A stretch of 64,000 bases of DNA, from the IMG/VR virus record IMGVR_UViG_3300027792_000011; one strand, written 5' to 3'. Source of the DNA: a virus. Below the pieces are notes generated by a model, which ran no database searches, was not told the DNA's origin, and saw only the letters and a list, made by a program, of their open reading frames with translations. The position numbers were made by a program, and so were the translations under genes. Of the stretch, positions 5,333-10,631 are shown one piece after another; the stretch's first letter is position 1, and every line of letters starts with the position of its first letter.

Positions 5333-5731
5333 ATGGGCAAGTCCAGGGCTAAACTAGAAGATTTGCGTAGTTCGATGAATATGATCAGAAGTAGACTCTG
5401 TGAGGCACTTGGAATCGCAGATACGGATCAATGGGATCTGATCATCGCTGAGGCGCGAAGCATACGCCATACACAGGTTGTAAGGACATACGCATCTCCA
5501 GCTTCGGATGTCAGGAGGGAGTATGTTCGGCTGGTGTCACTCGGTACCAACGTATGCTGTGAGGGAGTAGACTTCACTATGGTGGATGGTAAGCCTCACT
5601 TCATAGACATCACACTCCACGATGGTGCCACGATCCAAATGTGGCAATGGTCCCTCCTTCCATCCAGTATCGCTTTTCCAAGCTACAAGCGCTGGACAGT
5701 ACGAAACAATGATCTTGTTCTGATGGAGTAG
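5333..5731 (+). CDS. Hypothetical protein
   Basis: GGAGG RBS, operon continuation. Confidence 0.7.
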   Translation: MGKSRAKLEDLRSSMNMIRSRLCEALGIADTDQWDLIIAEARSIRHTQVVRTYASPASDVRREYVRLVSLGTNVCCEGVDFTMVDGKPHFIDITLHDGATIQMWQWSLLPSSIAFPSYKRWTVRNNDLVLME

Positions 5732-5754
5732 GTCCTGCCTTATTGATCTAAAAA

Positions 5755-5796
5755 CAAGAGAAACATGATCCGCATGTTTCTCTCTTAGATAGTTAT
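5755..5796 (+). repeat. Copy 1 of a ~41-bp promoter/operator direct repeat (AAACATG-N5-CATGTTT palindrome)
   Basis: Near-identical to 6298-6338. Confidence 0.75.
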
Positions 5797-5833
5797 GATC
5801 GTTTACAGCTAAAGGAAATTGCGCAGAAGTGCG

Positions 5834-6220
5834 CTAGGAGGATTTCTTCTGGTTGGCTTCTAGGTGCTGGGCTCTTTTGGCAAGCTTTCGCTGTAGCCCA
5901 GCGAGTTGGGTGCGGGCATCGTCCCTCTCTTTTCGGAGGGCGTCTCGTTCCACCCCGACGGAGAACAACTCTGCCTTGGTATCATTCAGCGCTTTCCTCA
6001 GCCCGTTCAGCTCGTGGATTTCTGGTTCCTTCTCGTTCCACTTCAGCAAGAAGGTACTTGCCATTCGCTCCTTCACCAGGGCATCAGACTTGTAGCATTT
6101 CTGCAGGATTTTCAGATCGTGCTTCAGCACCCTTATGGCGTCTACGGCTGGATGATCTGATGATCCTCGGTCGTCTTCCAGGGATATACGAAGTAGGCCA
6201 AAGAACCATTGAATACTCAT
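5834..6220 (-). CDS. Coiled-coil hypothetical protein
   Basis: GGAGGT RBS, GTGATAAG promoter variant at 6246-6239, heptad-like C-terminus. Confidence 0.7.
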   Translation of the reverse strand: MSIQWFFGLLRISLEDDRGSSDHPAVDAIRVLKHDLKILQKCYKSDALVKERMASTFLLKWNEKEPEIHELNGLRKALNDTKAELFSVGVERDALRKERDDARTQLAGLQRKLAKRAQHLEANQKKSS

Positions 6221-6297
6221 TCTTGCACCTCCAAATTTCTTATCACATCAAATTGATCTGGATTTTCAGGATCACTGCCAATATTGGATCAAAATAG

Positions 6298-6341
6298 CAA
6301 GAAAACATGATCTGCATGTTTTTTTCTTAGATCGTTATAAG
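6298..6341 (+). promoter_or_regulatory. Copy 2 of the repeat: palindromic operator plus GTTATAAG promoter of the Cas7-like operon
   Basis: AAACATGATCTGCATGTTT then TCTTAGATCGTTATAAG, 70 nt before the 6411 ATG. Confidence 0.7.
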
Positions 6342-6410
6342 TAGCACGGAGCCAAGATCAATAAAGCTACCCATGTCGGGAGCATCAGAGAAGGGCTCCA
6401 AGGAGCAGTT

Positions 6411-7262
6411 ATGCCGAAAGTAACGAAGAAACCAGCAGAGCAGCCAGTTGACGACACCACAGTAGCAGTTCCCCTCGAGGAGATTGAGCCTGCACGCAGA
6501 GAGCTACGCAGGGGAGAGAAGATCCACATCGAAGACATCTTCGAGGTGGCACTTCCGGTGTGGATCAAGGCGTGGCCGGGCACCCCTCTGGTGATGAATA
6601 ATTTGAAAGGCAAGAGCCACATTGGAGACATCCGAATGCGGCTCTGTGGATACAACACATCCAAGAAAGGAACCGTGCGGAACCCCTATGACGAGTACAT
6701 TGGCGCAATGTACATCGACGAGGAGGGTAGACACTGCTTCCCGACCCATGGGATCAAGTTGGCTATCTGTTCCGCACTCCAGTTCATACCGGAGATCCCG
6801 ATGACGATGGCGAGAGCCCGTCGTCTAATCAAGGTCAACGTTGGTCAGGAGCTCACTCCGCTGGAGTGGGAGCCTGTTGCAAACAAGCCTCCGCTGGTCT
6901 TCTCGGTTGCTGAGATGAAGCAGGAGGGGGCTGAGCTCAAGCCTGGTAAGGGGAAGAGGGCTACCGGCGTGTACTACACGGCAGCGGTGGCTGATGACAT
7001 GCCGGAGCTGCGAGAGGACGTCGTCCGCCTCATGGGCAAGACGAGAGCTCCAGATCTCAGGTACAGGCCCCAGTACAGGGATTGGAGCGCGAAGATCGTT
7101 GTGTCCTTCCCACCGAAGATCATCACCACGAAATCCGTCTTCAACCTGATCAACATCGCGGGGAAGTACATTGGTCTCTGCGAATGGAGGCCGGAGAAGG
7201 GCGGAGAGTGGGGGATGTTTAGAATTGACCAAGAGCGGACTGGGGCTGTGACCCTAGAGTAG
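6411..7262 (+). CDS. Cas7/RAMP-like RNA-binding protein (candidate Vipr-like effector)
   Basis: RAMP-like layout: N-terminal strand with GTPLVM, Y..EEG..CFP..GIK.AI helix, thumb ending RYRPQYRDW, C-terminal glycine-rich loop AGKYIGLCEWRPEKGGEWGMF. Directly followed by a repeat array. Confidence 0.75.
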   Translation: MPKVTKKPAEQPVDDTTVAVPLEEIEPARRELRRGEKIHIEDIFEVALPVWIKAWPGTPLVMNNLKGKSHIGDIRMRLCGYNTSKKGTVRNPYDEYIGAMYIDEEGRHCFPTHGIKLAICSALQFIPEIPMTMARARRLIKVNVGQELTPLEWEPVANKPPLVFSVAEMKQEGAELKPGKGKRATGVYYTAAVADDMPELREDVVRLMGKTRAPDLRYRPQYRDWSAKIVVSFPPKIITTKSVFNLINIAGKYIGLCEWRPEKGGEWGMFRIDQERTGAVTLE

Positions 7263-7667
7263 CCTCTTCGGAGGCGAAGTGAAGCGGCTGTAGCGAATGG
7301 GATTGGAAAGCCAGGTCCAGGCTGTAGTGGCAGGGATCGACATGGAGTACCGTGGCTGTACTGGAAAGCCAAGGCCATGACTGGAACGGATGGGATTGGT
7401 CGGGCTGAACAGGATAGAACGGCAAGCCATTGGAAGCAATTGGAGGGGCTGTACAGGCCAACAGAGGTTGGGAGGTGTATGGAGCTGAGCGGAGCGATCT
7501 GATCGGCTGTAGCGGAAAGAGATGGAGAGGTGAGCAAGGGCGGTCCCGGATTACTAGGGCAGACAGGGCAGTGATCTGGCTGCAATGGAAAGCCATCGAA
7601 AGAGGTGGTATGTCTGGGATGGCTCGTGATCCTGGGGATGAAGTAATCTCTCCCCAGGATCGTTTTT
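7252..7667 (+). ncRNA. Pentamer-periodic candidate guide-RNA array 1 (leader hairpin, ~8 units, terminator)
   Basis: GGCTG(T/A/C)A anchors at 7286, 7320, 7354, 7403, 7447, 7505, 7539 (degenerate) and 7578. Spacings 34, 34, 49, 44, 58, 34, 39 are mostly 9+5n. The interior consists of 5-mers mostly starting with G/GG. Confidence 0.8.
7628..7667 (+). terminator. Intrinsic terminator closing array 1
   Basis: GATCCTGGGGA / TCCCCAGGATC stem followed by GTTTTT. Confidence 0.8.
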
Positions 7668-7685
7668 GACAAGAAAGGAGCTGCG

Positions 7686-8174
7686 ATGGCCAGAAATAGG
7701 AGGAAGTTCGCTTGGCGAACTCCTCACTTCTATCAAGGGATCGATCCTGACGAGGTAGCCAGGGAGCTCGAGGACATCAAAGAAGAGAACGGCTTGCTCA
7801 CACCATCGCTCGTGGTTGAGCGAGCACGCGATTCTATGTCGGCGCTCCACGCCTGCTTCGAGTGGAATGATACGACGGCTGCGGAGAAGTACCGGCTCCA
7901 GCAGGCAAGGACGTTGATCCTGAACGTCCAAGTGATCGTCAAACACTCTGAGCCACAGATCTTCCTAGTTCAGATCGAGAACAAGGAAGGGAAGAAGACC
8001 TATGAGGATGTTGAGCTGGTGACTGAAGAGGCGGCCTGCCTCGTCATGGCCAATGCCCTCAAAGATCTGAAGGCGTGGATGAAGAGATACAACGAGCTGA
8101 AAGATAGGTTACCTCTGAGCAAAGTCTTCAGCGCTGTCGATGAGGCGTTGAGGCAGACTGGGGCACAGCCCTAG
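7686..8174 (+). CDS. Conserved phage protein; accessory to the Cas7-like/array locus
   Basis: AAAGGAG RBS; LTP..VVE.AR...S.LH..FEW.D..AAEKYRL.QAR.LI motif; lies between the two arrays. Confidence 0.8.
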   Translation: MARNRRKFAWRTPHFYQGIDPDEVARELEDIKEENGLLTPSLVVERARDSMSALHACFEWNDTTAAEKYRLQQARTLILNVQVIVKHSEPQIFLVQIENKEGKKTYEDVELVTEEAACLVMANALKDLKAWMKRYNELKDRLPLSKVFSAVDEALRQTGAQP

Positions 8175-8881
8175 AGTAAGCAGCTTGGCTGCTGAAGTGA
8201 ACCGGCAGCAGATGAAAGGTTAGGAGGGGCTTGGGAGGCAAGATTGGGCTGTAAAGGATGGCATAGATCGGGTTAGGACCGGATCGGTTGGGATTGAACG
8301 GCTGTAGTGGTTTCTAAGGGTTAGGAAGTGAAGGGTCGGGAGGGTTCAGGCTGTAAAGGAGGGGAAAGGTAATGTAGGGGTCGGGCAAGGAAATTACAGA
8401 AAAGGCTGTAGAGGATAGGATGGGAGATGGATTGGACGGTTAGGGCCGTAAGGGCGTAGATCGGAGAGAAGCGGGAAGGTAGGGCTGTAATGAAATGAAG
8501 AATCGATAACGGGGAAGGAACTGACGGGATTAGGCTGAAGAGGAGTTGACTGCAGGGAATGGGCGCTGCTTGGCGAGTCGTATCTTGGCTGAACAGGCGA
8601 GAAATGCTCTGAGAAGGCGATGCCTTGGTACGGCTGTATTGGAGTGCAAGGCAGGCGGACTGATCAGGAAGGGCTGTACCGGATTGCCATGAAGTGTATT
8701 GCTGATCATGCGAATGGCTGTAGCGGAGCGGATTGGCGCTGATAGCAATGTAGGGGCTGGGCTGTAGTGGAACGGATTGGAGTTGACAGTGATGCAGTGG
8801 CGGACCTGGTCTGCATGCCATGGGCACCCACGTGTTTTGATCCTGGGAGGGAGACCGTTCTCTTCCAGGATCATTTTCTTT
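8169..8881 (+). ncRNA. Pentamer-periodic candidate guide-RNA array 2 (leader hairpin, ~13-15 units, terminator)
   Basis: Anchors at 8204, 8247, 8300, 8349, 8404, 8444, 8483, 8533, 8587, 8632, 8672, 8716 and 8760, plus degenerate ones at 8228 and 8799. Same leader and terminator architecture as array 1. Confidence 0.8.
8838..8881 (+). terminator. Intrinsic terminator closing array 2
   Basis: TGATCCTGG / CCAGGATCA stem extended by G-U pairs, followed by TTTTCTTT. Confidence 0.8.
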
Positions 8882-8886
8882 AGATG

Positions 8887-8955
8887 ATCATAAAATAAGG
8901 CCCTCGTTCAGTTCCACTATCCTTGTAAGGACAACACTGGAACCGTTCGAGGGCC
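8887..8955 (-). terminator. Long hairpin, probable terminator of the convergent minus-strand operon
   Basis: GGCCCTCG / CGAGGGCC and GTTCCA / TGGAAC stems, followed on the minus strand by TTATTTT. Confidence 0.5.
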
Positions 8956-9010
8956 TCACGGCGCCGCCATGTAAGAGGGATCGTATCGTAGACGCATTTC
9001 AGAAGCAAGA

Positions 9011-9712
9011 CTACAGTCCGTAGGTAGTACGGATGAGACGGACATCGCTATCTGTGAGGCGGGTGGTGGCGGTGTTCAGCTCGTCTGTCACCATGCGCGG
9101 ATACATGAGTGAGCTGATGAACTGATCATGAGAGAGTCCGATCACATGACCCAGTTCGTGGAGTGTGGTGACGAAAGCAAGTCTATCAGAGGAGGTTTCT
9201 CTGATACGAACTATGGACTGTATAGACTGCATCGTCGTTCCGATCTTAGCATGGTTGACGTAGCCACCAATCTTTCCGCTCTCGGAACCCGTAGCTCCGA
9301 CTACTGACGGCGCACCCCAGATCACTACTACATCTGGTTCCTCATCCGCAATATTGGCGACGCTGAAAAGGAGCTTTCCAACTTGGAGATTGAAGTCGTC
9401 CATAGCCTCTTTGACTATCTTCGATCCCCTATCTTGCTCTTTGAGTGCCGTATGGTTGTTGCTGAATACGACGACGGATAGCGGTAGTTGCTTTTGTGGC
9501 CACACCAGAGGAACTGGGTTCTTGCACTGCCCGCTATCCCCCTCCCCTTGTATGTCTTCGGTGTAGGAAGCGTGCCCATTGTCCCAGCACACTTGGAGCA
9601 GGCCTGCTTCCTGATGTGTAACCACCCCATAGACAACGCAGCAGGCAGCGATGACGGCGAATACCAGGATCACTAGTCCCCACGTTCTGAGAGAGCTCTG
9701 TTTCGTTTCCAT
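9011..9712 (-). CDS. Matrixin (M10-like) zinc metallopeptidase with N-terminal membrane anchor
   Basis: HELGHVIGLSH (HEXXHXXGXXH), Met-turn SLMYP, hydrophobic N-terminus. Confidence 0.88.
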   Translation of the reverse strand: METKQSSLRTWGLVILVFAVIAACCVVYGVVTHQEAGLLQVCWDNGHASYTEDIQGEGDSGQCKNPVPLVWPQKQLPLSVVVFSNNHTALKEQDRGSKIVKEAMDDFNLQVGKLLFSVANIADEEPDVVVIWGAPSVVGATGSESGKIGGYVNHAKIGTTMQSIQSIVRIRETSSDRLAFVTTLHELGHVIGLSHDQFISSLMYPRMVTDELNTATTRLTDSDVRLIRTTYGL

Positions 9713-10085: not shown

Positions 10086-10631
10086 TTACTCCTCTATGAC
10101 TTCGATTCCCGAGCTGTCCACCGAGAACGTGCCAGTCGTTGCACCATCGATGGTGAGACCGATGCCGTGGTTCCCTGTGGTCGTAAGAATTGCCAAGAGG
10201 TCGTCGGTGGGTACCTGAACCTCACCGTGAATACGAATCGAAAGGTCCAAGGTCCAATCGTCCCATGTCGGCAGATATATCGAGTTGGGATTGCTAATGA
10301 CAGTTGGACCCGAGATCAAATGAGTTCGCCATGCCGGCAGCGCGACCAGCCGTTTGACGAACGTACCTGCGATTGGTCCAAGATTGTCTACCACACCGGG
10401 ATAGAACGGAATGATCACGGCTTTTGGAGGATTGGCCAGTCCTCGTAGTTCTCGGAAAATGGCAGACCGCACATCTCCTAGAGGATGACCAGGAGATAGA
10501 TCTTCTCGCAGGTATTTTCCCGTCTCAGAGAGATCGTCATTTTCCGACGCCGAAGGGAGTAGAGTATGATGGCATTGAACCAGCATAGTTAGACCATCAA
10601 ACTGTAGACCGTTGATTATCTTCGTGAACAT
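10086..10631 (-). CDS. Divergent second Cas7/RAMP-like paralog
   Basis: Colinear motif blocks shared with the 6411 protein (see findings); AGGAGG RBS. Confidence 0.55.
   Translation of the reverse strand: MFTKIINGLQFDGLTMLVQCHHTLLPSASENDDLSETGKYLREDLSPGHPLGDVRSAIFRELRGLANPPKAVIIPFYPGVVDNLGPIAGTFVKRLVALPAWRTHLISGPTVISNPNSIYLPTWDDWTLDLSIRIHGEVQVPTDDLLAILTTTGNHGIGLTIDGATTGTFSVDSSGIEVIEE

Follow-up and report, generated by a model that had tools for sequence, protein, structure and literature searches.

Two noncoding tracts on the plus strand of a viral DNA from IMG/VR (record IMGVR_UViG_3300027792_000011), located at positions 7252 to 7667 and 8169 to 8882 of the 64,000-nucleotide stretch analyzed here (the window), are probably two guide RNA (vrRNA) arrays of a phage-borne Viral Interference Programmable Repeat (VIPR) system, each framed by a leader and a terminator; this reading includes the roles proposed for these elements below. 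VIPR systems, which are CRISPR-related silencers of DNA guided by RNA and first appeared in preprints of 2026, comprise the protein Vipr, the accessory gene vap, and the vrRNA (10.64898/2026.04.26.720920, 10.64898/2026.04.26.720927, 10.64898/2026.10.15.759431). Vipr is a small ancestral RAMP protein that coats a vrRNA built of GGY/NN pentamers, with one protomer per repeat, and competing phages and satellites are silenced when the NN bases read their double-stranded DNA with a skip of one base (10.64898/2026.04.26.720920, 10.64898/2026.04.26.720927).

In the window, the components follow one another on the plus strand in the order vipr, array 1, vap, array 2, and phage-type genes are present. 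The labelled VIPR loci that served as relatives carry L numbers (L003, L004, L034, L085, L087, L090, L091, L092, etc.). A blastn search with positions 6300 to 9000 gave no match to cultured phages; a single-protein scan for the near clade returned nothing in IMG/VR, and protein-based scans returned three short contigs in the metagenome collection and nothing in genome_contigs. An earlier reading of this DNA from its letters alone (the sequence-only reading) had proposed that a Cas7/RAMP-like gene uses pentamer-coded arrays; this wider idea corresponds to the VIPR systems published in 2026, a name that the reading did not give. The kind of system is already published; the array leader and the GGA-type repeat of the present clade seem undescribed, and novelty may lie in the clade-specific leader, in the richness of the repeat in A, and in the great length of the head-to-tail arrays.

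The Vipr-family protein and the pentamer lattice

The gene directly upstream of array 1 (6411 to 7262, plus strand) encodes a lone RAMP/Cas7-like protein of 283 amino acids, which profile and model comparisons show to be a Vipr-family RAMP. A profile of 58 homologues of this protein matched the Vipr of Escherichia phage SUSP1 (PDB 36pp_D) with an E value of 9.7e-12 over residues 4 to 192, and the single sequence matched the same PDB entry with an E value of 1.5e-4. The AlphaFold2 (AF2) model has a pLDDT of 81.5, and its top Foldseek matches are Csm3/Cas7 subunits (E value of 5e-5, probability of 1.0); a Pfam scan gave no Pfam family for the protein, which has about 200 metagenomic homologues. 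E258-W259-R260 of the predicted G-loop align with D177-W178-R179 of SUSP1 Vipr, and R219 aligns with the thumb residue R138; all of them are invariant or nearly so in the family, the invariant residues being R217, R219, P220, W225, E258, and R260. SUSP1 Vipr differs at H17, to which an asparagine (N63) is aligned in this clade.

The two tracts are rich in G and poor in C, with a GC skew of up to 0.69, and hold 17 of the window's 38 GGCTG[AT]A sites. Within them, the autocorrelation of G peaks at lags of 5, 10, 15, and 20, and 3-nucleotide periodicity is absent. The 7-nucleotide anchors lie at irregular spacings of 34 to 79 nucleotides, but the spacing between anchors equals 4 modulo 5 in 61 of 103 cases, so that a unit consists of a 9-nucleotide boundary plus n pentamers (9 + 5n nucleotides). 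When 75 units from four arrays were stacked on their anchors, G was found in 63 to 96% at positions 10, 15, and so on to 45, followed by G/C and then by A/C. The boundary GGCUGUANN can itself be read as two pentamers, GGCUG and GUANN, that have one G in common, which gives 7 to 14 repeats per unit. Array 1 (7286 to 7627, plus strand) starts with the anchor GGCTGTA at 7286 and contains seven to eight units, each with a GGCTGTA-NN boundary and 5 to 10 pentamers of the form G-[G/C]-[A/C]-N-N. Array 2 (8204 to 8837, plus strand) starts with the degenerate anchor GGCAGCA at 8204; its approximately 13 units follow the same grammar with more register slips, and its last unit is conserved. Comparison with a strain whose Vipr is 97% identical shows gain or loss of entire units and heavy substitution in others, but a near-identical leader, last unit, and terminator; the turnover of units is guide-like.

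The 162-amino-acid gene between the arrays (7686 to 8174, plus strand; phrog_15946) is, from sequence comparison, a vap-type accessory gene of vipr. Its homologues come after vipr homologues in L003, L004, L087, L091, and L092 and also in Mycobacterium and Gordonia phages. The AF2 model of its product has a pLDDT of 77, and a Foldseek search with this model found no significant PDB match.

Two groups of additional open reading frames (ORFs) deserve mention. Antisense open frames cross the arrays on the minus strand (6974 to 7672, 232 amino acids; 8321 to 8827, 168 amino acids) and are called as genes in some public contigs. We rejected them as real genes, since a plus strand poor in C gives rise to few minus-strand stop codons, which accounts for these frames, and the anchor spacings are not multiples of 3. 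Elsewhere, a 181-amino-acid ORF on the minus strand (10086 to 10631) has a weak collinear likeness to the Vipr family (hhalign probability of 69.7%, E value of 4e-5, 134 columns) and is devoid of the EWRPEK G-loop; it may be a degenerate Vipr paralogue. In two related contigs, 181-amino-acid ORFs lie immediately upstream of vipr and are matched to the ORF of the window by length alone.

The leader at the head of each array

The motif CCCTAGAGTA occurs exactly twice in the window (7252 to 7261 and 8169 to 8178) and opens the leaders of array 1 (7252 to 7285, plus strand) and array 2 (8169 to 8203, plus strand). Each leader consists of CCCTAG-AGTA, a hairpin, and GAAGTGAA followed by two bases (GC in array 1, CC in array 2) and the first anchor. 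The two hairpins (7262 to 7275 and 8179 to 8193) differ in sequence while the pairing is kept: in array 1, GCCTC at 7262 to 7266 pairs with GAGGC at 7271 to 7275 around a TTCG loop, and in array 2, AGCAGC at 8179 to 8184 pairs with GCTGCT at 8188 to 8193 around a TTG loop. The leader motif overlaps the stop codon of vipr (TAG, 7260 to 7262) and that of vap (TAG, 8172 to 8174) in different frames. Across the 3.8-Mb assembly, there are two matches to the pattern CCCTAGAGTA-N(8-25)-GAAGTGAA, versus none to the reversed control.

Contigs with a Vipr that is 47 to 97% identical also bear arrays directly after vipr, each opening with the same leader. Six further leader copies were found on four other metagenomic phage lineages, giving eight distinct copies in all. 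Across these eight copies, the flanks GAGTA (AGTA) and GAAG-GAA (GAAGYGAA) are invariant, and the stem, which varies from 4 to 8 bp, is made of about five unrelated sequences. Stem cells are paired in 93.8% of cases, versus 58.1% in shuffles and 33 to 62% when the partner column is slid; two-sided changes are present in all six stem pairs, and the covariation score is 1.11 versus 0.30 in shuffles, with none of 500 shuffles reaching it. The copies of the relatives show that the leader is more than chance. Every copy lies 0 to 10 nucleotides after the stop of vipr or vap, and the distance from the hairpin to the first boundary does not vary in length; the leader lies exactly 10 nucleotides, or two pentamers, before the first unit boundary, and its GAAGY and GAANN carry the G-first pentamer register into that boundary. 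By covariation, the leader is thus shown to be an RNA-level element, with a covarying stem set between invariant AGUA and GAAGYGAA flanks.

These comparisons uphold what the sequence-only reading had claimed for the array heads, namely, a shared 5' motif, a hairpin kept through different sequences, a second motif before the first anchor, and conservation at the nucleic acid level; the last of these is borne out by the frame-independent overlap with stops, the covarying stem, and the conserved single-stranded flanks. The covariance model of the leader that the same reading had suggested was built and searched, and it returned only copies adjacent to vipr or vap. The model (R1) revealed no extra copies in 705 kb of loci from 92 sources, including 80 distant VIPR loci, or in a further 150 genomes from the same order; in the assembly of the window itself, it recovered only the two known copies. 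A scan of IMG/VR with the leader pattern gave 17 matches, none with a stem or a G-rich array, and all of them are chance.

The leader hairpin of array 2 has a 3' arm (GCUGCUG) that can pair instead with the first, degenerate anchor (CGGCAGC; 8188 to 8211), and the minimum-energy fold prefers this alternative, which could be due to chance or could act as a switch.

Array ends and arrays in related loci

As noted in the sequence-only reading, the hairpins at the ends of the two arrays have the outer arms GATCCTGG/CCAGGATC in common (7628 to 7661 and 8838 to 8873), and each is followed by a T-run; the complete 3' elements (7628 to 7667 and 8838 to 8882, plus strand) are of the intrinsic-terminator type. 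The hairpins fold with -22.4 and -25.3 kcal/mol, respectively (z scores of -3.4 and -3.6), and none of 200 shuffles was as stable. The first element is kept in L091, and the second was also found by a terminator scan. GC-rich hairpins with U-rich tails close each of the seven array ends that were examined (two in the window, five in relatives), and the hairpin sequences differ. Because the end hairpins of the relatives differ in sequence, the likeness of the two terminators of the window is attributable to paralogy of the arrays rather than to a sequence-specific role. The proposal of two homologous noncoding RNA units with a shared leader and matched 3' ends of the intrinsic-terminator type therefore stands, except that paralogy accounts better than a specific role for the matched terminator sequence. 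The last units of the two arrays (7578 to 7627 and 8760 to 8837) are almost identical in the 97%-identical strain, whereas internal units vary, and they hold extra pairing (AGCCATC/GATGGCT and ATGCAG/CTGCAT); the last unit of each array may represent an array-level 3' tail.

The arrays are 0.4 to 0.7 kb long in the window and 0.4 to 2 kb long among near relatives. The longest is a single array of about 2 kb with 36 anchors (L003, 1160 to 3250), and another of about 1.5 kb has 21 anchors (L004, 5750 to 7240); near-duplicate units in L003 indicate that arrays grow by duplication and divergence of units. In L004, L090, and L087, the boundaries read GGC[CT]GAC instead of GGCTGTA. A 41%-identical relative (L085, 3430 to 3990) has its array upstream of vipr, without the AGTA/GAAGYGAA leader and with GGC-NN and GGA-NN pentamers mixed, and this array looks intermediate between the canonical repeat and the repeat of this clade. 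A low-GC phage whose Vipr is only about 30% identical (L034, 4555 to 4960) combines GGC[TA]GTA-NN boundaries and GGA-type pentamers with a different hairpin before the array, indicating a wider distribution of the boundary grammar than of the leader. Among distant VIPR loci, the pentamer tract begins within a few bases of the upstream ORF stop in L057, L014, L076, L042, and L074 (e.g., ...GCCTAGGCA), and a hairpin lies just before the tract in L056, L068, L078, and L051; arrays abutting ORF ends may be a general VIPR habit.

Proposed roles, alternatives, and known systems

Much of the locus agrees with known VIPR systems: a lone small RAMP with a [D/E]-W-R G-loop and a thumb arginine, an adjacent accessory gene, a phage context, and a tandem-pentamer RNA with conserved G-G and variable positions on the vipr strand. 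The guide size is also comparable (7 to 14 repeats per unit here, 9 to 16 in the published systems), and in 56 distinct distant VIPR loci, every pentamer tract lies on the vipr strand. The differences are from published type II systems. Only type II guides have been studied experimentally; they are separate RNAs of about 100 nucleotides, each with a 3' tail. In the SUSP1/P. fulva clade of type II, this tail is invariant and forms a pseudoknot in each vrRNA, whereas no per-guide tail is present here and conservation is confined to the last unit and the terminator. In contrast to type II, guides are joined head to tail here via the 9-nucleotide GGCUG/GUANN boundary in arrays of up to about 2 kb. 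One structured leader stands before each array here, whereas the text of the VIPR papers mentions no array leader. The "staggered vrRNA arrays" in Fig. S18 of the VIPR preprint (repeats NNNGG, YNNNG, and NNNNG) resemble this clade in their overlapping one-base boundary and noncanonical repeat; the architecture is probably the same. In 10.64898/2026.10.21.760802, non-GGY pentamers are described for 21 clusters; the motifs named in the text (GAC, CAC, WGT, and TGH) do not include GGA/NN, and no leader is mentioned.

Several observations weigh against assigning the tracts to VIPR arrays or a general role to their leader. In the characterized example, the type II system of SUSP1 (PDB 36pp), the pocket excludes purines at position 3, and GGY>GGA was used as a disabling mutation; in the GG-pentamers of this clade, however, position 3 is A in 130 cases, C in 59, T in 29, and G in 18 (A, 55%; pyrimidine, 37%), whereas C or T predominates at this position in most of the 56 distant loci. 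Between orthologous units, the NN positions are not enriched in substitutions, which amount to 13 to 17% at positions 2 to 5. Because A is common at position 3 and substitutions are not focused on NN, the published code may not transfer unchanged. The VIPR preprints allow "a related consensus" for repeats, so that A at this position marks a noncanonical member rather than exclusion. No targets were found under the 1-nucleotide skip rule, either with 20 guides of the window against the 3.8-Mb assembly or with 108 guides against 4.6 Mb that comprised the assembly and all loci; target matches with 0 to 2 mismatches were no commoner at a skip of 1 than at a skip of 0, at a skip of 2, or with reversed guides, and across skip rules 0 to 3, nothing rose above controls except self-matches at skip 3. 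As for the leader, a single sequence folds no better than shuffles (z scores of -0.5 to +0.7), and support for the stem comes from covariation among about five independent lineages, whose sequences are few and partly related; this support is good, not overwhelming. The leader is also missing from the 80 more distant VIPR loci, and it is specific to this Vipr clade and not a general VIPR requirement.

On the VIPR reading, the vipr and vap messages would each extend into the following array as an untranslated 3' part. The leader would mark the junction between ORF and array and is most likely the 5' boundary element of the array, with a putative function in processing, stability, or Vipr phasing. 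It might be the processing or protection point that parts the guide precursor from the mRNA, or it might serve as a fixed cap for laying Vipr protomers in register, each on one pentamer as in the SUSP1 filament already published. The sequence-only reading had suggested a 5' handle for processing or loading. The GGCUG/GUANN boundaries would delimit individual guides of 7 to 14 repeats, and the terminal hairpins would end transcription and shield the 3' ends. By analogy with the published systems, the resulting Vipr-vrRNA filaments may silence the DNA of competing mobile elements.

Alternatively, the leader could serve the upstream mRNA, as an intercistronic 3' stabilizer or processing stop against 3' exonucleases after the array has been cut away, or as a device that halts ribosomes at the end of the ORF. 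The adjoining stop, 0 to 10 nucleotides upstream of the stem, means that a terminating ribosome would cover the 5' arm, and there is one leader per ORF-array junction and not per guide, which fits this explanation. A plain protective hairpin, however, needs no invariant AGUA and GAAGYGAA flanks in pentamer register, and the constant 10-nucleotide distance to the first boundary links the leader to the array lattice; we regard a role for the upstream mRNA as distinctly unlikely. Release of the array by a self-cleaving or nuclease-recognized module, i.e., a small ribozyme or a specific RNase site, would parallel the arrays interspersed with hammerhead ribozymes that the VIPR preprint describes for some types. 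Yet Rfam gave no match in the window at gathering thresholds and no ribozyme family at E values up to 10 over 7150 to 8950, and a single hairpin of 4 to 8 bp with 4 plus 8 conserved bases is too small for the known self-cleaving classes. The AGUA and GAA on either side of the helix look like a bulged-G (sarcin-ricin/loop E) module, of a kind that proteins commonly recognize, and this resemblance counts in favor of such a site, which nevertheless appears quite improbable.

The remaining explanations place the signal in the DNA or dispense with guides. TAGAGT/GAGTA could initiate transcription of the array, as a -10-like promoter element or as an operator for a protein, with the pairing being incidental, and TAGAGT does have T1, A2, and T6 of a -10 hexamer in the copies of the window, L091, and L087. 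L004 and L090, however, have TTGAGT, which lacks A2, and L003 has AGGAGT; no sigma-70-type promoter was called in 5700 to 9300, and the compensatory changes in all six stem pairs favor selection on RNA pairing, which makes a DNA-level signal very improbable. That the tracts are no guide system at all, being instead a sponge for a CsrA-like protein, DNA iterons, or Chi-like sites, is hardly credible. Their many GGA motifs, C-poor composition, and short repeated anchors would suit such elements, but CsrA sites have no fixed period, unlike the strict boundary-phased 5-nucleotide lattice; a Vipr-family gene lies upstream of the arrays in the window, L003, L004, L087, L090, L091, and L092, and the strand asymmetry and leader covariation speak against a role as double-stranded DNA. 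Rfam gave no CsrB/Rsm match and only noise at E values up to 10 over 7150 to 8950. A CsrA/Rsm-type sponge RNA, DNA iterons or Chi sites, and a TIGR-like array were dropped on the strength of the lattice and the Vipr match.

Class 1 CRISPR systems share with the VIPR-type locus described here a RAMP protein that polymerizes on the guide and an array framed by a leader and a terminal end. They differ in that the lattice is 5 nucleotides here and not 6, the hairpin occurs once per array and not per guide, and no Cas6 is present. A CRISPR array was rejected for this locus, as there are no direct repeats of 25 to 40 nucleotides with spacers, no cas1/cas2, and no Cas families in Pfam and PADLOC scans of the neighbors. 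The order of a hairpin and then a conserved 8-nucleotide stretch nevertheless recalls Class 1 crRNA, in which the 8-nucleotide handle would correspond to GAAGYGAA.

A more specific proposal is that a distinct VIPR lineage has, in this leader, a signal dedicated to assembly or processing, composed of the hairpin, a bulged-G-like AGUA/GAA module, and the handle-like GAAGYGAA; Vipr or vap would recognize it, set the register of the filament, and start the stepwise release of guides that overlap by one base. We consider this unlikely, although not far-fetched. If true, Cas6 hairpin recognition and the crRNA 5' handle would have a primitive equivalent in this leader, which, together with the A at repeat position 3, would define a VIPR code variant that is new and follows a biogenesis route of its own. 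As a discovery, the present finding is modest, as the system is already published. For the question of how long head-to-tail VIPR arrays are transcribed, phased, and cut, however, this clade offers a compact handle, namely, one covarying hairpin per array at a distance of two pentamers, and a repeat with A where the solved Vipr excludes purines bears on re-engineering of the code.

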